Below are positions 50,232 through 60,756 of a stretch of 64,000 nucleotides of DNA, piece by piece (the first letter of the stretch is position 1; each line of letters opens with the position of its first letter). The notes below the pieces were generated by a model. The model searched no databases, was not told the DNA's origin, and saw only the letters and a program-made list of their open reading frames with translations. The DNA is taken from contig JBJOPW010000003.1 in NCBI GenBank assembly GCA_046050355.1, positions 11,922 through 75,921 of the forward strand, written 5' to 3'. The stretch comes from Candidatus Parcubacteria bacterium (lineage in GTDB: Bacteria > Patescibacteriota > Minisyncoccia > Phycocordibacterales > UBA918). A program made the position numbers and the translations under genes.

Positions 50232-51794
50232 TTACCTGTCTGCCGCTACCTCGATATCTACTACTTCTTTTGTGATAAGTGATTCACTCACGGCAATATT
50301 GTCTTGCAGACGCTTGAGGATTTTTATTTCTTCCCGAGTGAGCTTGCGCTTTTTACTCGCTTTTTCAAGGGATTCTATATCAACCTCAAGATCTGCTTTA
50401 AGCAGGGTAAATGACTTATGCACCATCATCCGAGCTTCGGTGATTTCGGTATGGAGTCTCTTTTTGAAGCCTGTAAACGTGCGCCAACTCCAGAGCAACA
50501 TCAGTCCCGTGAGTACAAGGAGTATGAGACTTGGCACCACAATCGCCAACACCGTTGCTGCTACGACACCAGTATTCAACGTCATCGTCTCGCCAAAGAG
50601 TGATCGGATTGGTGTTTCTTGGGGTGTCGATGTTGTCACTGCCGAAGAGACGTCAGCAATAGTGATTGTCTCAGTGCGAGACAAAATATTACCAGCCTGG
50701 TCGATAGCCCGTATGGTGACACTATGCTCACCGACGGTAAGCCCACTAAACTTGTATATAGGTCTATTACCGTCAATCAAAATTGGTTCGCTGTCACCGA
50801 CAACTACTTCATAGCGCATAATCCCAGAAATGCCATCAAAGGCGGTGAAACCAAACACATTATCGCCGAGATTGGTTACTGCCATTTTTTCTGGTGGCGT
50901 TGTATCAACTTGGAGCTTGTAGTGTTCTATAGCTCCCCAACCGGATGCCGTTTTGTACTGTACATGGAGGTATGAAATGCCCTCAGCCAAATCCTCAATC
51001 GTGCGGCTGGTAATTGGTGGCGTGTAGACTACAGTCGGCACTGAATCTGGTTGTTCGTCTACCAAGAGTCGCATCGCTACCACATCATCAGTCAGGGCAA
51101 AATTAAATGTACCAGTCGTTTCTTTTGACCAACTATCTGGAGCATGGCTCAAGGACTCGACTTTTGATACCGGCTGATTATTTACGCCATCATCAGTCAC
51201 CAAGGTAACAGGCTGTATCCCTGTCCCTGACGGCTTTGTTTCCACCACTGGTGCAGATGGCGTATCAACTACCGGAGCTGGTTCAGTCAGCTGGTACGTC
51301 GCGCTACCGCGGCTTTGTAATATTTCGGTACCCAGTCCATCATTGGCGAGCACTGACGCAGTACTGTAACTGAGTACCGCGGTCCCCACCGCTTTTACTC
51401 TAAAGGTTACCGTCAAAATCGCACCGCCCTGACCGGTATAACCTGGATTGAGGCTAATACCTTCAAAATTGATAGTGCCGGCACTATTTGAAAACGATGG
51501 TTCTACGACCCAGAGTGAAATGAGGGAGTGACTTTTTGACACCGACACCACCTCGAGTTGATTTGATGGAAACGACACTGTACCCGATACTGCATTCACT
51601 GCCTTGTCGCTACTCCCCACCGTGATAGTTGTAACAATCGTCGACCCAACAGCATACGAACCGCTCGTTCGATCAAAGGATAAACTTGCCGCCGCAGTTA
51701 TCGCCGGCATAGCAAATACAACGAGGAAGCCACTAAGGATTACACCAAGCGAGTACGGTAATAAGTACGAGCAAAATAAAGACCGAGTAGACAC
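50232..51794 (-). CDS. membrane-anchored surface protein with cohesin-like N-terminal domain
   Basis: Signal/TM, beta-sandwich-like region (SFDRTSGSYAVGSTIVTTITV...FEGISLNPGYTGQGGAILTVTFRVKAVGTAVLSY), C-terminal TM and coiled-coil tail. Start uncertain (overlaps upstream gene by 55 nt). Confidence 0.45.
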   Translation of the reverse strand: MSTRSLFCSYLLPYSLGVILSGFLVVFAMPAITAAASLSFDRTSGSYAVGSTIVTTITVGSSDKAVNAVSGTVSFPSNQLEVVSVSKSHSLISLWVVEPSFSNSAGTINFEGISLNPGYTGQGGAILTVTFRVKAVGTAVLSYSTASVLANDGLGTEILQSRGSATYQLTEPAPVVDTPSAPVVETKPSGTGIQPVTLVTDDGVNNQPVSKVESLSHAPDSWSKETTGTFNFALTDDVVAMRLLVDEQPDSVPTVVYTPPITSRTIEDLAEGISYLHVQYKTASGWGAIEHYKLQVDTTPPEKMAVTNLGDNVFGFTAFDGISGIMRYEVVVGDSEPILIDGNRPIYKFSGLTVGEHSVTIRAIDQAGNILSRTETITIADVSSAVTTSTPQETPIRSLFGETMTLNTGVVAATVLAIVVPSLILLVLTGLMLLWSWRTFTGFKKRLHTEITEARMMVHKSFTLLKADLEVDIESLEKASKKRKLTREEIKILKRLQDNIAVSESLITKEVVDIEVAADR

Positions 51795-52606
51795 AATACT
51801 AGTATACCGATAATGCGGAGAGACTGTTCATACTGACCAACCCCATTTTGGGGATAGAGTACGGCGGTGCGCGTGTTACCATTTTTATCAACGGCCTTTA
51901 CATAAATCTTTTTATCAAGATTTTGATGCTGTAACTCGTACGGACTTTCTGTTTGCTGGTAGGTACCAAACCAACCTTCTTTCACCGCCATGTAATCAAG
52001 GCCAGAGCCTTTGTCTTCGGTAGCAAATATAAGCGTCCACGCTCCCCCAAACATATCCGGGTCGCGAACAATTTGTGGTGTAAAAGCTTCTGGTAGTTCA
52101 TCATCAACCATTTGTATTGACACCATGGACGGACCAGCCACCACCGCCAGATGCAGGTTTTCTACTTGAGTCTTTGCTGGTGTACCCATCCCATCATGGA
52201 GGAGAATTTCATGAGTAGTGATATCAATCTTGCCCTGACCTAGAGCGGTGGCTTTGAAGTGTAGCGTGATAACGGTTATCGCTTCGCCGCTAAATCCACC
52301 CGGGGTAATACCGCTGAGAACAATTTTTCCTTTGGTTTCTTCTTTTGGTCGTTCTACCCAGAGCGAGACGACCGAATCACCGTCATCAAAATCAACAAAT
52401 TCAAGAAACTCAGTCGGGTACGTAAGGGCCATACCGACAGTATTCATTGTTTGCCCTTCAGTATCAAGCACTACAGCAACTATCACATCATCACCAACCC
52501 GCGAAGTCTTAAAATCACTTTGGAGCGTCAAATCAGCGGCCTGCACATACGGTACCCAAACAAAAAGCGCTAATCCACATATTCCCACTAGTAAAATCTG
52601 TCGCAT
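51740..52606 (-). CDS. membrane-anchored surface protein with cohesin-like domain (paralog of previous)
   Basis: Signal peptide MRQILLVGICGLALFVWVPYVQA, then RVGDDVIVAVVLDTEGQTMNTVGMALTYPTEFLEFVD...GFSGEAITVITLHFKATALG, then C-terminal TM. Confidence 0.45.
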   Translation of the reverse strand: MRQILLVGICGLALFVWVPYVQAADLTLQSDFKTSRVGDDVIVAVVLDTEGQTMNTVGMALTYPTEFLEFVDFDDGDSVVSLWVERPKEETKGKIVLSGITPGGFSGEAITVITLHFKATALGQGKIDITTHEILLHDGMGTPAKTQVENLHLAVVAGPSMVSIQMVDDELPEAFTPQIVRDPDMFGGAWTLIFATEDKGSGLDYMAVKEGWFGTYQQTESPYELQHQNLDKKIYVKAVDKNGNTRTAVLYPQNGVGQYEQSLRIIGILVLCLLGLYFARTYYRTRLV

Positions 52607-52607
52607 A

Positions 52608-53657
52608 CTACCCGGTCCAATTAAATGCCAATATACTAAAGTCGACCAAGTTAATCTTGCCGTCACCATTAAGGTGTTTCGCTTCACGGAGTGCAAACTC
52701 TGGTGTCATTGACCGTAAGTACCAAAAAGCGGCAATAGAAAAATCAACCAGGTTAACCCGACAATCCGCATTAAGATCAGCGCGCGGGCTACACTCTACT
52801 GATGCTTCACGATACACATCTTTGGTGCCAACCGAAAAAGCATACGCCGCACTCTGTGAAGAAATCGTGTCTTCGATACTCGAGCGCGCTTTGGCGTGAT
52901 GCTCCCCCACTTCGAGTACCGATGAATCAAAACTACGCAGGTACACACCATCAGTACCAGCGGTAGTTTTTACAAAAAATTGTTGCTCAGAATTAACTTC
53001 TAGTGTTACGGCAGAGAGCGGGAAGCTCTGCCCAAAGAGGATGATCGGGTTTCCTTTTTTTACTTCAATTTTATCTCCCGTAATGGTAGGAGCGACATAG
53101 ACACTTTCGATTTTGGCAAGAATGTTTCTGGTCACGGTGACTGGAAAGGTGAGCAGTGACGAACGAATCCCTTTGGTGTCTTCACTATAGAGTGAAAAAA
53201 TGTAGGTACCAGCGGCTAGACCCCGCACGAGGACTTGAAACGTAGCGTTCTCATCCGCTATGGTAGTTGCTACTACCTGCGCATCCTTAAGAATCGTCAC
53301 TTCACTGCCTGGATAAGCCCGACCAGTAATCACCACTTGGGCTCCACGGGTTTGACTGCCACCGCCACCTCCGCCGCCGCCACTTGGTGGCGTGTAGACA
53401 CAGGAGAGGGTATTAAACAAACACGATGAGGTACAAGCAAGGACGCCGCTGGTGAATCCGCGTGACTGACACGAGGCACCACCAAAGTTTCCGCTATCAC
53501 ATTCTTCGCCGCTATCAATGATGCCATCCCCACATCCAGGCACTCGCCCTTCTATTATGACTGTACTACTACCAACTCCTTGAGCAAAAATTGTGTTTGT
53601 GTAAGCAAAAACCAGCACTAGTACCAACAACGCACTTCCCGTTAGCAAATACCGCAT
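52608..53657 (-). CDS. secreted protein with Cys-rich N-domain, Gly8 linker, Ig-like middle and C-terminal dockerin-type repeat pair
   Basis: Two dockerin-like Ca-binding repeats: DLNADCRVNLVDFSIAAFWYL and LNGDGKINLVDFSILAFNW (D.N.DG.VN..D...L). Confidence 0.55.
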   Translation of the reverse strand: MRYLLTGSALLVLVLVFAYTNTIFAQGVGSSTVIIEGRVPGCGDGIIDSGEECDSGNFGGASCQSRGFTSGVLACTSSCLFNTLSCVYTPPSGGGGGGGGSQTRGAQVVITGRAYPGSEVTILKDAQVVATTIADENATFQVLVRGLAAGTYIFSLYSEDTKGIRSSLLTFPVTVTRNILAKIESVYVAPTITGDKIEVKKGNPIILFGQSFPLSAVTLEVNSEQQFFVKTTAGTDGVYLRSFDSSVLEVGEHHAKARSSIEDTISSQSAAYAFSVGTKDVYREASVECSPRADLNADCRVNLVDFSIAAFWYLRSMTPEFALREAKHLNGDGKINLVDFSILAFNWTG

Positions 53658-53663
53658 CGCACA

Positions 53664-54623
53664 TTAGCTACTCTTTTTACTTTTTGAGATAATCCACGCG
53701 TTGTATCGTTTGAGCAGAACGATAAGGATGATGATTGCGACCACAACGACGGTGAGGAGTTGCCATGGTACTAGCAAAAACCACAGCGAGTCACTGACCG
53801 TTTGATTGGTTGCGCCATAGACGACAGATAAGTTCGCTTTATACAAACCAAAGTGAAAATCACTGAGCTGATTTTTTACAGTACCAAAAAATGAAGTGGT
53901 GGTAGTAGCGCCTGCGAGACTGCCCCACACTGGTTCAAACTTACGAGTGCTATTAGGCAACACACTTCCTTCGTTTATGTTGGCAGAGATAGTCGCAGCC
54001 GTTCCACCAAACATATTTTTGATCGTGATATCACCAAGCGGTACTACTCGGTCACCGCCACTGTTAGCAAAGCGGTATTGAAAACTAACCGGCAGATCAA
54101 CCTGTAGACGAGAACCGGTAAGGGTAAAATCTTTGATACCCGCCGCTTCAGGAATGTCTCCCGAGACACGCAGGAGAATGAGTACGCCGAGCTTCCCACC
54201 AATTGCTACTTCGCCAGCGGCTTCGATCTCTGGATCTTGTTCGCCCCAAAAGATAGCAGCAAAATACCCACCCGGTTCGGCATCATTTGGAATCGTGATG
54301 GTGAACGGTACTTTTTTGGTTTCGCCGGTGGCCAGTAGGACACTGGTTTCTGTTCCCAGCCAGGTAGCCAGCCCATCGGACCCGCCAATAAACTTTGGTG
54401 AGCCGGTATCACCACTTGGTTCAAAGTTTTCAAACGATGAGAAAAAGGTCTTCGATCCAGCCTGCTCATTAAGCATCTCAAGTTCACCATGGAGGGTTTG
54501 TCCGGGGTCACCAGTCACCTCAATAGTCACCGGCGAAATCGTCAGGGCCTTGGCTTCATGGTTCCCCACAAAAAAACATAACAAAAGTGCTGCGACCAAT
54601 GTTATGTTTTTGAGTGATTTCAT
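53664..54623 (-). CDS. DUF916/CscA-like cell-surface protein (signal peptide, beta-rich ectodomain, C-terminal TM anchor)
   Basis: MKSLKNITLVAALLLCFFVGNHEAKA signal, ISPVTIEVTGDPGQT start of ectodomain, C-terminal TM plus basic tail KRYNAWIISKSKKSS. Confidence 0.45.
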   Translation of the reverse strand: MKSLKNITLVAALLLCFFVGNHEAKALTISPVTIEVTGDPGQTLHGELEMLNEQAGSKTFFSSFENFEPSGDTGSPKFIGGSDGLATWLGTETSVLLATGETKKVPFTITIPNDAEPGGYFAAIFWGEQDPEIEAAGEVAIGGKLGVLILLRVSGDIPEAAGIKDFTLTGSRLQVDLPVSFQYRFANSGGDRVVPLGDITIKNMFGGTAATISANINEGSVLPNSTRKFEPVWGSLAGATTTTSFFGTVKNQLSDFHFGLYKANLSVVYGATNQTVSDSLWFLLVPWQLLTVVVVAIIILIVLLKRYNAWIISKSKKSS

Positions 54624-54668
54624 GAGAGGAATAATACCCTAATTTGGCGCCCCTGCAAGTATGGAGGC

Positions 54669-55736
54669 TTAGAAGTTGGCCGTAGCTACGTAGGTTACCG
54701 CGCCTGTATATGAACCGGCTTCAGTGTTCGCGGTAATGTTAGCAATATAACGAGCTGAGTATGTCGTGTTCGCCGATGCCCCTGAAGCTGAAGCGATAAT
54801 ATCAGGGAAGGCAGCAGTATCAAATGCAAATCCAGCAGCGGCGTAGGGAGCAACCACCGCACCAGAGCCACCGGTGGCTGTCATACGAAGACCAAATTGC
54901 TCAGTACCAACTGATGAGGCAGTGTTTGCTGCACCAATTGCCGTGATGGTATTGGCCCCCGAGGTGAGCGTAGTACCACCAACGGTCATGGTGTAGCCAT
55001 TGGCGGCGTTTGTACCAACAATCACATTGTGTGCTTCACCTTCAGAACCTGCACCGGCACCAGTACCATCCGCAAAACGAGCAGCCGAAGCTGATAGTGT
55101 GCCAAAACCAATGGTAGTGTCAGAAATACTGAATGTCAGTGACTGGGGCACGGTAGCGGTAATATCAACTTGGTTACTCGTCAACATATTAACGGTCATA
55201 TCACCCGCATCACCAAACGCCCCACTAATCGAGATTACGTATGATCCCGGTGTTGATGGGTTGATTGCATTAGTTCCATCCATGGTGATGATGATTTTAT
55301 CGCTTGGTGCTACAGCGGCTGCACCAACACCGTCAGTAGGCGCCGTGAGCGTCAAGACGCGGTTCTGTGTGGACGAGAATGCCGCTCCCCACGCTGTGGC
55401 TGAAGCCGAGGCGGCCAATGTTTCTGTACTTTCTGCACCAGTGGTTGCACCGTGAGTAAATGTCACGGTACCAATCGTTTTACTCGTGAAGTTGAAGTCT
55501 GACGGGAAGGTAATGATGATCGTATCAGTGTTGTTGTTGGCTCCAGTCGGGGTCGTAAAGCGAATGGTATGGGTTGAGGTTGCGCTCACCGTCAATGACG
55601 ACATCGTGTCTGAAGCATTGGTGATCGATGCAGCCCTTGCCACCTGCATTGGCACGATCGCCAACATAATAATGGCGACACTGAGAAGCAAACTGATGGT
55701 CTGCGTACTGTAATTTTGTAAAACGGATAAACTCAT
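54669..55736 (-). CDS. secreted WxL-like (CscB/C-type) surface protein
   Basis: Signal peptide. C-terminal ~170 aa with QSLTFSISDTTIGFGTLS, GTEQFGLRMTA and terminal GSYTGAVTYVATANF blocks, paralogous to 58088-59077. Confidence 0.5.
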   Translation of the reverse strand: MSLSVLQNYSTQTISLLLSVAIIMLAIVPMQVARAASITNASDTMSSLTVSATSTHTIRFTTPTGANNNTDTIIITFPSDFNFTSKTIGTVTFTHGATTGAESTETLAASASATAWGAAFSSTQNRVLTLTAPTDGVGAAAVAPSDKIIITMDGTNAINPSTPGSYVISISGAFGDAGDMTVNMLTSNQVDITATVPQSLTFSISDTTIGFGTLSASAARFADGTGAGAGSEGEAHNVIVGTNAANGYTMTVGGTTLTSGANTITAIGAANTASSVGTEQFGLRMTATGGSGAVVAPYAAAGFAFDTAAFPDIIASASGASANTTYSARYIANITANTEAGSYTGAVTYVATANF

Positions 55737-55879
55737 ACGTTGGTGATAGAACTAAACAATAAATGCATGTAAATGAGACAGGTCAAAGTGACCACTTTTC
55801 CCATAGACCATTATACCCCACCAAGCCACGCTGGAACTGTTTACCTGTGTAGAAGATAGCCGTGTGGTCATGGTAGAAT

Positions 55880-57103
55880 GTGACCATCTATACTATGCTC
55901 CGAAACGTATTTGGACTCATTTCAACCGCCAACAAAGTCTTCAGTGTTCTTTTGTTATTCGCCCTTTCGGTGGCGATTTTTCGCTATGTCTATGCGGCTA
56001 CTCCGAACCCCGGACACAATTTTAGCGCGATTGGCGGTGGAGCAGTCCAAGGTGATCTGCTCTATGGTTCAGCGGCCGATACGCTCTCAGCTCTCCCTAA
56101 AGATACTAACGCTACTCGTTACCTCTCAAATACTGGAGCGAGTAACAACCCCGCCTGGGCGCAGGTGAATCTCACAAATGGTGTGACAGGAATTTTGCCG
56201 GGTGCAAATGGCGGCACCGGCAATGGCTTCTTTGCCGTCAGCGGACCCGCTACTGCCCTGCGCACCTTTACCTTCCCTAATGCTGACGCCACCGTCCTCA
56301 CAAGTAACGCCGCGGTGACAGTGGCTCAAGGAGGCACCGGCCTGACGACCTTGACTGTCAATAACCTCCTCGTTGGTAACGGGACCGGTAACGTTACCTT
56401 TATTGCCCCGTCAACTGATGGCAATATCCTCCAATCAAACGGCACCACCTGGATTAGTACAACGGGAGGTGTGATTCACGGCCGCCAAACCCTCACCTCA
56501 GGTACTACCTATACACCAACCACCGGCACCAAAGAAATTTGGATCCGCATGTGGGGTGGTGGTGGTGGTGGTGGTGGTTGTTCTGCTGTGGCTGGTTGTG
56601 CCGGCGGAGGTGGCGGTTCTGGCGGTTACGCTGAATATTACCTCACCGGTGTCACCGGAACCTATACCTATGCTATTGGTGCCGCCGGAGCTGGGAACTC
56701 AGGTGCGGCCGGAGGAAACGGTGGTAACACCACCTTTAACACCGGTGTTACCACCATCACTGCCTTTGGTGGTACGGGTGGAACCTTTACCGCCGGTACA
56801 GCCGCGATCAAATTTATGCCTGGTGGAGCTGGTGGCGTGATTTCAACCAATGGTCACGTTAACGGTGCTGGCGCCCCAGGAGACAACGGTATGACCAGTA
56901 CCGTAAACACGGTGGTGATGTCAGGCGCTGGAGGTGCTACTGCTCTTGGGGGCGCTGGTAACGGTCGTAACACCACCGGTGCCGGGAACGCCGCCATCGC
57001 CAACACCGGCTCTGGTGGTGGTGGCGCTGCCGCTGCGGCCGCCACGGCCAATGCTGGTGGCGCTGGTGCTGCTGGTGTCATTATTATCACTGAATTTAGA
57101 TAA
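55880..57103 (+). CDS. secreted glycine-rich repetitive protein (beta-solenoid / tail-fibre-like)
   Basis: Signal anchor, then GxGxT-type repeats (LPGANGGTGNGFFAVSG..., VAQGGTGLTTLTV), a Gly8 run, GGxGG repeats to the C-terminus. Confidence 0.5.
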   Translation: MTIYTMLRNVFGLISTANKVFSVLLLFALSVAIFRYVYAATPNPGHNFSAIGGGAVQGDLLYGSAADTLSALPKDTNATRYLSNTGASNNPAWAQVNLTNGVTGILPGANGGTGNGFFAVSGPATALRTFTFPNADATVLTSNAAVTVAQGGTGLTTLTVNNLLVGNGTGNVTFIAPSTDGNILQSNGTTWISTTGGVIHGRQTLTSGTTYTPTTGTKEIWIRMWGGGGGGGGCSAVAGCAGGGGGSGGYAEYYLTGVTGTYTYAIGAAGAGNSGAAGGNGGNTTFNTGVTTITAFGGTGGTFTAGTAAIKFMPGGAGGVISTNGHVNGAGAPGDNGMTSTVNTVVMSGAGGATALGGAGNGRNTTGAGNAAIANTGSGGGGAAAAAATANAGGAGAAGVIIITEFR

Positions 57104-57105
57104 CA

Positions 57106-58110
57106 ATGACTGCACGTCTGTACCACCAACCAAGCCCGCTCTTACTCTTTCCAGTCTTCTTACTGCTGATTATTTTTTGTATACCAACTACCCACGGACA
57201 AACACCAACAGAAACACCCGACATCGCCACACCGGTGGTTTCTACACCAAACTTTCTACTCGATACACCCATTTTCACAAACGTTGAACAGTCTGCCGTG
57301 CTGTTGACGCCGACGTTTTCTGATAATAGTACCAACCTTGCCTTTTATCTTCGTTGCCCGCACACTCTGTGTGGGAATGAAGACCTGTCGGCATCACCGT
57401 ATTACCAATTTAGTGCCGAAAATATTGGTCGCGGTAGCCTCCCCTTTAGTGAGTACTGGGCGCCACCCACTGCCACCGACTATGCGGTAATTGAATATGC
57501 CAACGACAACCAGCAATTTAGTTGCTCGGGACTGACGTTTGAGGCCTGTCTTGCTGATACACATTTTGTGCAGGTATTTTATTTTGCTGTGGTTGACGAT
57601 AGTAGCACCATCACCCCCGAACTACGCGCCGAAAAAGAACGTCTCAACAATCCAAATCCGCTGAGTGCAGAGGCAGATACCGCAGCCGTCAGTGAAGAGC
57701 TGCGGTTACTCTCGATCAATCTCTCCTCTACTTCTATCAGTTCTGACCTCGATAACGGACTGATCGTGACCGCTTCACTCGATGGCATCCCAAGTGTCGT
57801 ACTCGCCTCTGATAGTACCAGTAGCACGGCAACAGCGACAGACAGTACTCCTGAAAGCAGTTCTCCGATCAAGGATTTTTTTGCTGATGTTGTTGAAACG
57901 GTAGTGGGATTATTTACCGAACCAGACACGCCTCCCCCACCAACTGAAACGGTCACACCTCCTGAGTCTGTCCCGCCACCAGTCACCCCAAGCGACCTTG
58001 AACCAACCACAACCAACGACACACCATCGCCATCTTTTCTCGATACGGTACAATCATTCATATCGACGGATGTAACCACCCCAGACGATGTCACGACTGC
58101 TTCATTCTAA
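57106..58110 (+). CDS. secreted S/T/P-rich hypothetical protein
   Basis: Signal peptide, Cys-containing middle domain, PPPP/Ser-Thr-rich C-terminal half. Confidence 0.45.
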   Translation: MTARLYHQPSPLLLFPVFLLLIIFCIPTTHGQTPTETPDIATPVVSTPNFLLDTPIFTNVEQSAVLLTPTFSDNSTNLAFYLRCPHTLCGNEDLSASPYYQFSAENIGRGSLPFSEYWAPPTATDYAVIEYANDNQQFSCSGLTFEACLADTHFVQVFYFAVVDDSSTITPELRAEKERLNNPNPLSAEADTAAVSEELRLLSINLSSTSISSDLDNGLIVTASLDGIPSVVLASDSTSSTATATDSTPESSSPIKDFFADVVETVVGLFTEPDTPPPPTETVTPPESVPPPVTPSDLEPTTTNDTPSPSFLDTVQSFISTDVTTPDDVTTASF

Positions 58111-59077
58111 AATTATCGCCGGCCTCCTCATCTGCGGCCTCATTATGCTTGTCACCCCGCAGACAAATGCCGGTACGCTTTCATGTTCGATTACCACTAA
58201 TGCCGCTTGTACCCAAACCAAGATTCTTCGTCTCTCAGATACCACCAACGCCCACGCTGAACTTCCAAGTCAATCAACTGCTGCTTATGATAACAATGTG
58301 GTCTGCTGCACGAACGTCATTGGTCTTGGCAACTCTTGCGCGGGCACCAATGCTATTGCGGTCAAACTATCCGCCACCACCAATGCCCACGCCGAACAAA
58401 ACACCGAAGCCAACTATGCTGGTAACAATGCCTGTATCTCGGTTCCAACTGGTGGCAGTGTGACCGTTGGTTACCAGGCGTCGAACTGCACCGGCTACGA
58501 CACCACTATCGGCTCAATCGAATCACTCACAAACTCCCACGTCGGTGATGCAGCAGCGTATACCACCAAAATCTGCGCGACCGCCTCGGGTGTGCCGCAG
58601 ACACTCGTCTTTAGTATCTCTGATAACAGTATTGGGTTTGGTTCACTCTCACCGGTCCAAACCAGGTACGCCACAGGAGATACCGTCGGTGCTACCAGTG
58701 ACAGTGCTGACGCACATACTATTTCTATCGCCAGTAACGCAACAGGAGGTTATAGTATGACGATTAGTGGACAGACCCTGACCTCTGGGGCTCATACTAT
58801 TACTGCCATCGGCGGAACGGCCGTTGCCCCTGCTGTAGGTAACGAGCAATTTGGTGTACGCTTGAGCGTTAACTCCGGCACTGGCTCAGCAGCTTCACCA
58901 TATAACGGCAGTAATTGGGCACTTGATACCGGTGCCTTCCCAGACACTATAGTGACCGGAAGTGGTGACTCGGTAACTACGGTGTATGGCGCCCGGTATA
59001 TGGTAAACACGGCCACACTCACCGAACCCGGCAACTACAACGCTGTTATCACATATACTGTTACGGCTACATTCTAA
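58088..59077 (+). CDS. secreted WxL-like surface protein (paralog of 54669-55736) with Cys-rich N-domain
   Basis: QTLVFSISDNSIGFGSLS, GNEQFGVRLSV, GNYNAVITYTVTATF blocks align with 54669-55736. N-half has two TTNAHAE repeats and 11 Cys. Confidence 0.5.
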   Translation: MSRLLHSKIIAGLLICGLIMLVTPQTNAGTLSCSITTNAACTQTKILRLSDTTNAHAELPSQSTAAYDNNVVCCTNVIGLGNSCAGTNAIAVKLSATTNAHAEQNTEANYAGNNACISVPTGGSVTVGYQASNCTGYDTTIGSIESLTNSHVGDAAAYTTKICATASGVPQTLVFSISDNSIGFGSLSPVQTRYATGDTVGATSDSADAHTISIASNATGGYSMTISGQTLTSGAHTITAIGGTAVAPAVGNEQFGVRLSVNSGTGSAASPYNGSNWALDTGAFPDTIVTGSGDSVTTVYGARYMVNTATLTEPGNYNAVITYTVTATF

Positions 59078-59083
59078 TCTTGA

Positions 59084-59329
59084 TTACAGACCCTGTTTGC
59101 GCGCGCCCCGACGATCATAAAAAGTCCAGAGGTAGTACTGCTCCACTTTCTCTCTAGCCCACGGTGTTTTACGCAAAAACGTCAAACTCGAATTGACACT
59201 CGGTTTATCGACGAAACACTTGATCTTGATTTTTTGCCCAAGCGCTGCCCAGCCGTAGTGCGCTGACAACTCTTCGACCTGTCGCTTGAGAGTAATACCG
59301 TGAAGCGGATTATTTGGTTGTATGGTCAT
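59084..59329 (-). CDS. DUF2132 (VF530-like) small protein
   Basis: NPLHGITL...HYGW..L...I.I.CF...[21 protein letters not shown] matches the DUF2132 signature. Confidence 0.55.
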
Positions 59330-59336
59330 TATATTG

Positions 59337-60425
59337 CTAGCTTCCTTGATCAAATCGTTCAAGACTTTGATTCAATTGCCGATTCACCCGCACAAACGTG
59401 GCTCGCTTGGCAAATTCTTTGAGCGTGGCTGCCCCAATGTACGTACCGGTACTCCGCAGTGCTCCAAACAAATCTTGCAAAAAGTCATAGATTGAACCCT
59501 TGAGGGGAATCAACGTGTAGCGTCCCTCACTCGCTCGATGGGTATCTTTTTTTCCGTATAGCTTCGTCATAGCGTGATTCGAAGACGAACCAAAATACTC
59601 CTTGTACTGCCTGCCATCTTTTTCGACTGTTTCACCAGCACTTTCAATAAAACCCGAAAACATTGATCCAAACATATTAAAGTCGGCGCCAGCCGCAAAC
59701 GCTTTAGCGACACAGGATGGATACTGCTGACCGCCATCGGCAATAATAAGTCCGCAGCCCTGCCCACTATTGAGGCCATGGGCTGCGTCTGCACACTCAA
59801 TCACTGCACTGAGCTGTGGGTATCCCACCCCGGTCATCCGCCGAGTCGTACAAGCACTGCCGGGACCAATACCAACTTTTACAATATCGGCACCCGATAA
59901 AATAATCTCTTCGGTCATTTCGTTGGTGACCACGTTCCCGGCGATAATGATATGTTTCGGAAACATTTTTCGAATCAGTTTTATCGTATCAGTAAAACGT
60001 TCAAGGTAGCCATTTGGTACATCAATACAGATGAAGGCAAAATTATCCATGAGCTTGGCTTTCTGCATCGCTTTAATCTGCACAATATCTTCATCTCGAA
60101 TCCCGATGGTGAACGCAATATAGGGTGCGATAGCGAGCAGTTCTTTTTTGGTCTTGAAGCTACCAAAAAACTGTTCAAAGTCTTTGACCGTGTAGTACTT
60201 ATGAAAAGTGGTAACGATTTTTTGCTGTGACAAGATGCGTGCCATTTCAAAGGTCCCGCAGGTTGCCATATTAGCAGTCATAATAGGTACACCAGTCCAG
60301 ACTTGTGGCGAGTGATAAAACTTGAACGTGCGTTCGAGAGAGACATCCTTCCGTGAGGTCAAGGTACTCCGTTTTGGGCGCAAGAGTACATCCTGATAAT
60401 CAAGCTTAATTTCTTCTTCAATACG
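59337..60425 (-). CDS. guaC: GMP reductase (IMPDH/GMPR family TIM-barrel without CBS insert)
   Basis: [14 protein letters not shown]-terminus, [12 protein letters not shown] active-site loop. 362 aa from [11 protein letters not shown]; the annotated longer start adds 45 aa. Confidence 0.8.
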
Positions 60426-60471
60426 CATAATAATCTCAGTATACCAACTAATAGCCAACACCGCACGAAAC

Positions 60472-60756
60472 TCACTTCGGTTTTGAAAAGTACTTGGCAG
60501 CACCTGGCCTTCGGTGGGGACAGCCTGGCCAGCAGCAAGGGCGACGTTTCCCGCGTCCAAGGTCGAGGGTCAGGCGGCGTAAGTGGTCCGCACGCGTCTC
60601 GGCTTTTTTTACATACGTCACCCAACAGATCCACTCGTTGCGCGCCAGTGGCGTGAGACCATTCCAGATGTCTGGTATCCCTTTAGTACGAAGTAGCACC
60701 TGCCGCATATCAGTCGGTAGTCGGTGGTTTACCCCAGTAGCAAGAGTGGTTGTCAT
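60472..60756 (-). CDS. YdeI/OmpD-associated family small protein
   Basis: LARNEWICWVTYVKKAETRADHLRRL pattern. Confidence 0.4.
   Translation of the reverse strand: MTTTLATGVNHRLPTDMRQVLLRTKGIPDIWNGLTPLARNEWICWVTYVKKAETRADHLRRLTLDLGRGKRRPCCWPGCPHRRPGAAKYFSKPK

Follow-up and report, generated by a model that had tools for sequence, protein, structure and literature searches.

The window analysed here, a 64,000-nucleotide stretch of DNA from a Candidatus Parcubacteria bacterium (GenBank assembly GCA_046050355.1, contig JBJOPW010000003.1), is chromosomal DNA from a metagenomic contig. It contains a locus of two divergent gene arrays, one on the minus strand with gene B, gene A, a gene for a dockerin-like protein and two genes for cohesin-like proteins, and one on the plus strand with genes C, D and E. 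The locus is probably a Pam-type pilus locus of a bacterium of the Candidate Phyla Radiation (CPR; Patescibacteria, Parcubacteria/Paceibacteria-like), with B and E as its pilins and A as a membrane-anchored chaperone. The open reading frames (ORFs) of B, A and E lie where a first-pass annotation of this DNA had placed them, and metagenome gene calls (JGI 3300043408, Ga0451701_0000014) agree, with products of 355, 319 and 329/334 amino acids. The features on which the reading depends are as follows.

54669-55736, minus strand: B, 355 amino acids, putative major (shaft) Pam-type pilin, made up of a signal peptide (about residues 1-35), an N-terminal beta-sandwich (about 36-180), a linker or donor strand and a C-terminal pilin domain
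55143-55196, minus strand: linker of B, residues 181-198, TVNMLTSNQVDITATVPQ, putative donor strand
54672-55142, minus strand: C-terminal pilin domain of B, residues 199-355, putative acceptor domain, common to E
53664-54623, minus strand: A, 319 amino acids, starting 45 nucleotides 3' of B, putative pilus chaperone with a signal peptide (residues 1-26), two immunoglobulin (Ig)-like domains, a transmembrane (TM) helix and a basic tail
53694-53765, minus strand: TM helix of A, about residues 287-310
58088-59077, plus strand: E, 329 amino acids, putative second Pam-type pilin, with a signal peptide and a Cys-rich N-terminal domain that carries three TTNAHAE/TNSHVGD repeats
58583-59074, plus strand: C-terminal domain of E

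B and E share a C-terminal domain (CTD) of about 165 residues. BLASTP aligned residues 196-355 of B with residues 169-329 of E at 80 of 161 identities (50%; E-value 7e-48), which bears out the paralogy that the first-pass annotation had proposed, and the blocks it had quoted are visible in the alignment (QSLTFSISD..IGFG.LS, G[TN]EQFG[LV]R and the terminal ..Y.ARY..N....TE.G.Y....TY..TA.F). A phmmer search of all six-frame ORFs found no third paralogue in the window. The similarity is far above chance, since a profile built from the two sequences recovered 790 cluster representatives at E-values up to 1e-3 among 1.84 billion proteins. In the best 150 of these 790 representatives, which range from 160 to 3243 amino acids in length, the CTD ends 0-5 residues from the C-terminus, and the final residue is always aromatic (F in 128, Y in 22). 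In the PapD/FimC chaperone-usher systems the chaperone recognises the C-terminus of the subunit, and by analogy the strictly C-terminal aromatic residue suggests that a chaperone may recognise the subunit C-terminus here as well.

The Pam pilus is a CPR pilus assembled by donor-strand exchange that was described in a 2026 bioRxiv preprint (10.64898/2026.03.03.709456). In thin filaments from the CPR parasite Ca. Mycosynbacter amalyticus, cryo-electron microscopy (cryo-EM) identified the pilins PamA and PamB, which consist of an N-terminal domain (NTD), a linker strand and a truncated Ig CTD, the linker filling the open CTD of the next subunit (10.64898/2026.03.03.709456). PamC and PamD are PapD/FimC-like proteins with a C-terminal TM helix, and further products of the operon are PamT, a tip pilin of one domain, the pilin PamE and PamR, an anchor that is RbmA-like; among the conserved neighbours of pam is a 'tail fibre-like' protein, and Pam pilins were reported mainly in Saccharimonadia and Microgenomatia (10.64898/2026.03.03.709456). 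Both B and E exceed the curated cut-off (55 bits) of the hidden Markov model (HMM) NF058581 (CPR_Pam_pilin_C, "Pam pilus system pilin subunit"; NCBIfam release 20), B with 79.2 bits (E-value 3.2e-22) and E with 64.7 bits (E-value 9.7e-18), and the B-like pilin of a related locus scored 81.2 bits. The PamT model NF058579, an equivalog with a cut-off of 240 bits, gave sub-threshold matches to E (32.2 bits, model positions 11-241 of 241) and B (39.5 bits, positions 73-241); judged by sequence, B and E are related to PamT and not orthologous to it. A Pfam scan gave no match for B or E, Pfam and NCBIfam together yielded none to WxL, DUF916 or DUF3324 for any of the proteins A to E, and PDB sequence searches with B, A, the A-family profile, the CTD profile and one cohesin-like neighbour returned nothing meaningful.

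The first-pass annotation had read the CTD differently, as a divergent WxL domain with its Trp residues replaced, which would bind peptidoglycan. WxL/Csc gene clusters of Firmicutes encode small WxL proteins, large WxL proteins and a WxL-interacting protein (WxLIP) composed of DUF916 (PF06030), DUF3324 (PF11797) and a TM segment (PMC9772566, PMC10599100; PDB 9i1y). The CTD is like a WxL domain in being C-terminal only, at the extreme C-terminus in all 150 best representatives; its partner A is homologous to WxLIP (see below); and the non-significant alignments of the two domains are co-linear (LsFSISd..IGFG with GpLsid..s..FG, TNA..GY.itV with D.RGt.aGW.LtV, AG.Ys..LTY..T with a..YsTTlTW.L). 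The domain itself is unlikely to be of this kind. The WxL family PF13731 matched none of the 38 sequences scanned, with no match at E-values up to 1 for B or E and none at E-values up to 10 for 36 members of the CTD family. In hhalign comparisons of the 150-sequence CTD alignment with alignments of small WxL (19 sequences), large WxL (5) and a deep set of small WxL proteins (139, drawing on 120 retrieved for the comparison), probabilities were 0.5-2.9%, and the values of 2-3% were equalled or beaten by unrelated pairs. The local alignments had P of 0.015-0.023, as compared with 0.009 for the control of A against WxL, 0.003 for that of WxLIP against WxL and about 0.7 for reversed CTD/WxL controls; alignments in global mode collapsed. 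Nor was the proposed correspondence of motifs confirmed: the best local alignments, themselves non-significant, do not pair EQFGLRM with GWxL. They place WxL motif 1 opposite NGY[TS]MT[VI] and motif 2 opposite [VI]TY[VT], so that GY[TS]M and TY[VT] stand at the two candidate positions and neither position has a Trp. An apparent enrichment of B among the top WxL-HMM matches was considered and rejected, since the matching segments belong to the B NTD and, on the large WxL protein, do not fall within the WxL domain. No WxL chain was found in the PDB by sequence or profile search.

The architecture that the first-pass annotation gave to A, namely a signal peptide, a beta-rich ectodomain, a C-terminal TM segment and a basic tail, matches the AlphaFold2 (AF2) model, which has a mean predicted local distance difference test (pLDDT) score of 84.8 and shows a helix at residues 3-19, two beta-sandwich domains, a helix at 287-318 and the tail KRYNAWIISKSKKSS. 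Among the matches of a fold search with the model were the chaperone-usher chaperones CfaA (score 11.6), EcpB (11.2), FimC (11.1), CsuC (10.9), SafB, CupB2 and PapD (9.9), and A, as modelled, is thus of the PapD-like chaperone fold. It most likely acts as the assembly chaperone of B and E. At least 849 homologues of A were found, often on the same contigs as homologues of B.

The PapD-like fold of A might be taken as a sign of a classical pilus, be it of the chaperone-usher/SCPU, sortase-dependent or TasA-like kind, as might the likeness of the B N-terminal domain to Ig domains of Gram-positive pilins and to BslA/YweA, and the weak matches to PF00419 ("Fimbrial protein"), which was the commonest weak match in the CTD family (3 of 36 CTDs, best E-value 0.014). 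The PF00419 matches also count in favour of a Pam-type pilin. Against a classical pilus, the only two ORFs of the window that exceed 700 amino acids encode a class I tRNA synthetase and a TPR protein, which leaves no unexplained ORF of usher size in the window, and there is none in the conserved operon. A is anchored by a TM helix, unlike periplasmic chaperones; B and E end in ..ATANF and ..TATF and therefore have no LPXTG or sortase signal; no SCPU, PapD_N, TasA or Peptidase_M73 domain was among the reported Pfam matches; and the host lineage is that of the monoderm CPR. A classical pilus is therefore very improbable at this locus.

A second kinship of A emerged from profile comparisons. The protein itself has no Pfam match and does not reach the gathering thresholds of PF06030 and PF11797; 12 of 63 members of its family have sub-threshold matches to PF06030 (WxLIP_PGBD, formerly DUF916; best E-value 0.033), and PF11797 is not listed for them. 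The WxLIP motif NQIDKxxxYFDLK is absent from A, the mature N-terminus of which is LTISPVTIEVTGDPGQTLHGELEMLNEQ. True WxL clusters for comparison were obtained by scanning metagenomes for this motif (PMC10599100), which yielded 29 loci with 26 WxLIP ORFs and 59 WxL ORFs. When the 63-sequence alignment of A was compared by hhalign with 12 non-redundant WxLIPs, the probability of homology was 76.5%, and inclusion of 59 more divergent A homologues from related CPR loci raised it to 94.8% (E-value 5.5e-8) over 210 columns that span both domains, with controls (reversed sequence, unrelated families) at P of 0.003 or more. With the HMM of the A family, the eight best-scoring of the 1116 ORFs from the WxL loci were all WxLIPs (E-values 2e-5 to 9e-5), and, reciprocally, A-type ORFs made up 6 of the top 8 matches of the WxLIP HMM among 4185 ORFs of the CPR loci. 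The hhalign comparison, the reciprocal HMM searches and the fold together identify A as a protein of PapD-like fold that is remotely homologous to WxLIP. A is accordingly a distant relative of the Gram-positive WxL-interacting proteins that fails the strict criteria of the family: its description in the first-pass annotation as a DUF916-like, TM-anchored protein stands as to remote homology and falls short as to the Pfam thresholds and the NQIDK motif. The wider proposal of a WxL/Csc system was in the same way half right, in that the partner protein is homologous to WxLIP but the pilin domain is not detectably WxL.

The homology of A to WxLIP over both domains bears on how B and E might be held at the cell surface. 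It is conceivable that A is a permanent anchor that holds B, E and giant CTD proteins by strand complementation, with no polymerisation, as a static display like that of WxL/Csc proteins. The set of small, medium and giant CTD proteins together with a TM protein of two Ig domains would mirror small WxL, large WxL and WxLIP, and AF2 predicts that a strand of WxLIP completes the WxL sandwich, which the authors of that work read as stable anchoring (Hassan et al.). Static display is nonetheless improbable, given the properties of B. By its curated HMM, the CTD belongs to a family with members that have been seen as filaments by cryo-EM. The conserved linker of B sits exactly where Pam pilins have their donor strand, and most of the giant proteins lack it; a 1:1 anchor would leave unexplained the uniform length and strong conservation of B, which has more than 1200 homologues.

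The homologues of B number at least 1268 and are mostly of about 355 amino acids, with 67-94% identity among the best 120, and conservation across the family is highest in the C-terminal pilin domain. In the AF2 model of B an N-terminal helix (residues 2-27) is followed by a confident beta-sandwich (residues 40-185, pLDDT 85-91), segment 190-198 has a pLDDT below 50, and the CTD is beta-rich with a pLDDT of 45-70. Poor modelling of the linker and the CTD is expected in a monomer, because an uncomplemented pilin domain tends toward low confidence. The linker (TSNQVDITATVPQ) has alternating hydrophobic residues (V190-I192-A194-V196), and Q189 and V196 are invariant in 50 homologues. By analogy with PamA and PamB, it would be the donor strand. 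Among the 150 representatives, a strand of the type DDQVxVTAxV immediately precedes the CTD in 20-23 of the 49 that are 261-420 amino acids long but in only 2 of the 85 above 420 amino acids. It is thus concentrated in the shaft-sized class of about 355 amino acids, a distribution that fits strand-donating shaft subunits as opposed to large tip adhesins that would only accept a strand. Other conserved classes of residues just before the CTD in these representatives (P0241-P0390), mostly on large proteins, include 'LDTYTVYPEITTA', 'NNDSCWVF' and 'DFAMVSVQWVE', which might be self-complementing strands or donors of other types.

If the locus encodes a Pam-type pilus, assembly might proceed as follows. 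B, E and A would be exported by Sec, with cleavage of the signal peptide. The Ig-like fold of the B CTD would be incomplete and its groove open, and A, held in the membrane by its C-terminal helix, would cap the open CTD of a new subunit with a strand of its own. The best candidate for this capping strand is block G137-V153 (GEVAIGGKLGVLILLRV), which is invariant and partly disordered and which hhalign aligns with the hairpin region of WxLIP. The linker (..QVDITATV..) of the next B would then displace the strand of A by donor-strand exchange, and we infer that B polymerises in this manner into a thin fibre that would grow from its base at the cytoplasmic membrane without an usher. E might cap the distal tip as an adhesin, a role that in other genomes may fall to a variable or giant CTD protein, mostly one that has no donor linker.

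The organization of the operon was compared across 61 related loci, one genome per species. The gene order is a variable CTD-bearing protein, B, A, the dockerin-like protein and the two cohesin-like proteins, and the genes were present in 60 (B), 57 (A), 51 (dockerin-like), 41 (cohesin-like protein 1) and 39 (cohesin-like protein 2) loci. The operon as a whole is conserved in about 50 of the 61. The pair of B and A is conserved in 57 of the 61, all with CPR-type operons. Most loci are labelled as CPR metagenome-assembled genomes (MAGs), namely Paceibacterota, Parcubacteria, Nomura-, Magasanik-, Harrison-, Peribacteria and "Saccharibacteria", and several are labelled only 'bacterium' or 'uncultured bacterium'. 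Seven loci (L021, L028, L035, L037, L043, L047 and L059) have the full CPR-type operon under Gammaproteobacteria or Polynucleobacter MAG names; these are probably mis-binned or mis-labelled, and with such labels set aside the sequences of the 61 loci are consistent with restriction of the pilin family to the CPR. Three distant loci (L053, L056 and L057) have two A paralogues, as does the published pam operon. In the two-chaperone locus L057 (7872-12222) a 371-amino-acid protein with an N-terminus that weakly matches PamT lies between the paralogues, and the operon is directly downstream of rpoB-rpoC.

The remaining genes of the two arrays are these.

55880-57103, plus strand: C, 407 amino acids, glycine-rich, starting 143 nucleotides from B and opening the divergent C-D-E operon
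57106-58110, plus strand: D, 334 amino acids, Ser/Thr/Pro-rich secreted protein, with a 23-nucleotide overlap with the start of E
52608-53657, minus strand: dockerin-like secreted protein, 349 amino acids, starting 6 nucleotides past the end of A
51740-52696, minus strand: cohesin-like protein 1, 318 amino acids
50232-51794, minus strand: cohesin-like protein 2, 520 amino acids

E is a candidate tip or minor subunit. Its NTD (residues 29-165, 58172-58582 on the plus strand) contains three Cys-flanked repeats, LRLSDTTNAHAE, VKLSATTNAHAE and IESLTNSHVGD. An NTD of the E type occurs beside B in 15 of the 61 loci, and elsewhere this place is taken mostly by other CTD proteins, with ORFs of 0.8-6.3 kb. 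A motif before the domain, 'AYTTKIC', recurs in CTD proteins of 189-191 and of 332-337 amino acids, which may be PamT-like tip subunits. C matches PF21722 (Gly_rich_2; E-value 1.7e-11) and is a tail-fibre-like protein, secreted or anchored, with an N-terminal hydrophobic segment; a glycine-rich protein of this type lies near the pilin in 16 of the 61 loci. It may correspond to the 'tail fibre-like protein' of the Pam preprint and would then be a member of the system. D matched no family in Pfam or NCBIfam and is kept only in the four closest loci, and it might have some part in the pilus too.

The dockerin-like protein has a Cys-rich repeat, a G9 run, a Big_6 Ig domain (E-value 6.5e-6) and a duplicated C-terminal segment, D.N.D..(I/V)NLVDFS; its match to Dockerin_1 (E-value 0.0037) is below the cut-off. 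Cohesin-like protein 1 scored 24.8 bits with PF00963 (Cohesin; cut-off 24.1), matches an OmpL47-type barrel (E-value 2.7e-4) and contains an Ig-like domain; its C-terminal stretch is hydrophobic and resembles a TM helix. Cohesin-like protein 2, a paralogue of protein 1 as judged from phmmer cross-matches, also matches the OmpL47-type barrel (E-value 2.7e-6) and has an apparent TM segment near residues 410-440 with a charged tail after it. In general outline, a pair of beta-sandwich domains plus a TM helix, the cohesin-like TM proteins match PamR. One may speculate that cohesin-like protein 1 is a membrane anchor and that the cohesin-like and dockerin-like proteins anchor or decorate the base of the pilus. 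A cohesin-dockerin pair tied to the pilus operon is not part of the published description of Pam.

The locus is flanked by housekeeping genes, which encode FtsZ, LepA, MurJ, a class I tRNA synthetase, MgtE, MsrAB and IMPDH. Beside E, at 59084-60560 on the minus strand, a gene for a VF530-family DNA-binding protein (92 amino acids, PF09905) overlaps the 3' end of the IMPDH/GMP-reductase gene, and the same pair flanks the locus in L001, the closest relative. An Rfam scan of the window found four tRNAs only. In a scan for promoters and terminators, promoter-like sites occurred at the frequency expected from shuffled sequence and terminator-like sites somewhat above it, and neither delimited operons.

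The CPR may account for much of bacterial diversity, and these bacteria live attached to host cells, which makes attachment organelles central to their biology. The present locus suggests that the Pam pilus reaches beyond Saccharimonadia and Microgenomatia, into a very large and strongly conserved family in Parcubacteria/Paceibacteria-like genomes with at least 1268 pilin homologues, at least 849 chaperone homologues and 790 CTD clusters. The variable proteins of the tip slot, of up to about 3200 amino acids, look like determinants of host specificity.

The system shares with the Pam pilus a CTD above the cut-off of the curated HMM, a pilin built of NTD, linker and CTD, an adjacent two-domain PapD-like protein with a C-terminal TM helix, a tail-fibre-like glycine-rich neighbour, restriction to the CPR and the lack of an usher. 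Several points weigh against the assignment. The filament is a prediction from genes and models; the CTD of the AF2 monomer is of low confidence, and its open groove is not seen directly. The likeness was established through the HMM and the published description, and PamA, PamB, PamC and PamD were not found in the PDB searches. The PamT matches (32 and 40 bits) are far under the equivalog cut-off of 240, and NCBIfam lacks a model of the Pam chaperones that would link A directly with PamC or PamD. The lineage is Parcubacteria/Paceibacteria-like and not Saccharimonadia or Microgenomatia, a single chaperone gene stands where Pam has two, an RbmA-like PamR could not be recognised, and a conserved dockerin-cohesin-cohesin module follows the chaperone. 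The locus differs from Pam further in that E has a Cys-rich repeat NTD and sits in a divergent operon, and in that no ATP-synthase neighbourhood was found among the ORFs scanned.

With the chaperone-usher systems (PapD, FimC, CfaA, CsuC) the locus has the PapD-like fold of A in common. It differs from them in several respects: an outer membrane and an usher are both lacking, the chaperone is anchored in the membrane, an inter-domain linker would serve as donor strand in place of an N-terminal extension, the pilin carries an additional N-terminal domain, and A has no Pfam-level similarity to PapD_N.

The differences from the WxL/Csc clusters are that the shared CTD has no detectable relationship to PF13731 and no Trp, that A has no NQIDKxxxYFDLK motif and stays under the Pfam thresholds, and that there is no LPXTG (CscD-like) protein; WxL proteins, moreover, have been described as peptidoglycan-bound and not as filamentous. 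Sequence comparison thus supports homology of the Pam and WxL systems at the level of the chaperone, and homology at the level of the pilin was not detected. A pilus of this kind was already described in 2026, and what appears to be unreported is the chaperone-level link between Pam pili and the WxL/Csc clusters of Firmicutes: neither WxL nor DUF916 is mentioned in the Pam preprint, and a literature search found no paper that links WxL/DUF916 with PapD-like chaperones or Pam pili. The link, the first to be computed between the Pam pilus and clusters implicated in enterococcal virulence and lactobacillus adhesion, suggests a mechanism for WxL-WxLIP complexes, which is donor-strand complementation by a PapD-like protein. 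We tentatively raise the possibility that the Pam pilus and the Firmicute WxL/Csc system are two branches of one ancient, usher-less monoderm system based on a membrane-anchored chaperone and donor-strand complementation. If that were true, the WxL domain would be a pilin-type acceptor domain that has diverged greatly and WxLIP the counterpart of PamC/PamD, and the WxL clusters of enterococci, listeriae and lactobacilli might build short fibres in addition to sticking to peptidoglycan. The AF2 model of A shows the signal peptide, two Ig-like domains and C-terminal TM helix that characterise WxLIP, and, since a strand of WxLIP is predicted to complete the WxL sandwich, the Pam and WxL systems look mechanistically parallel.

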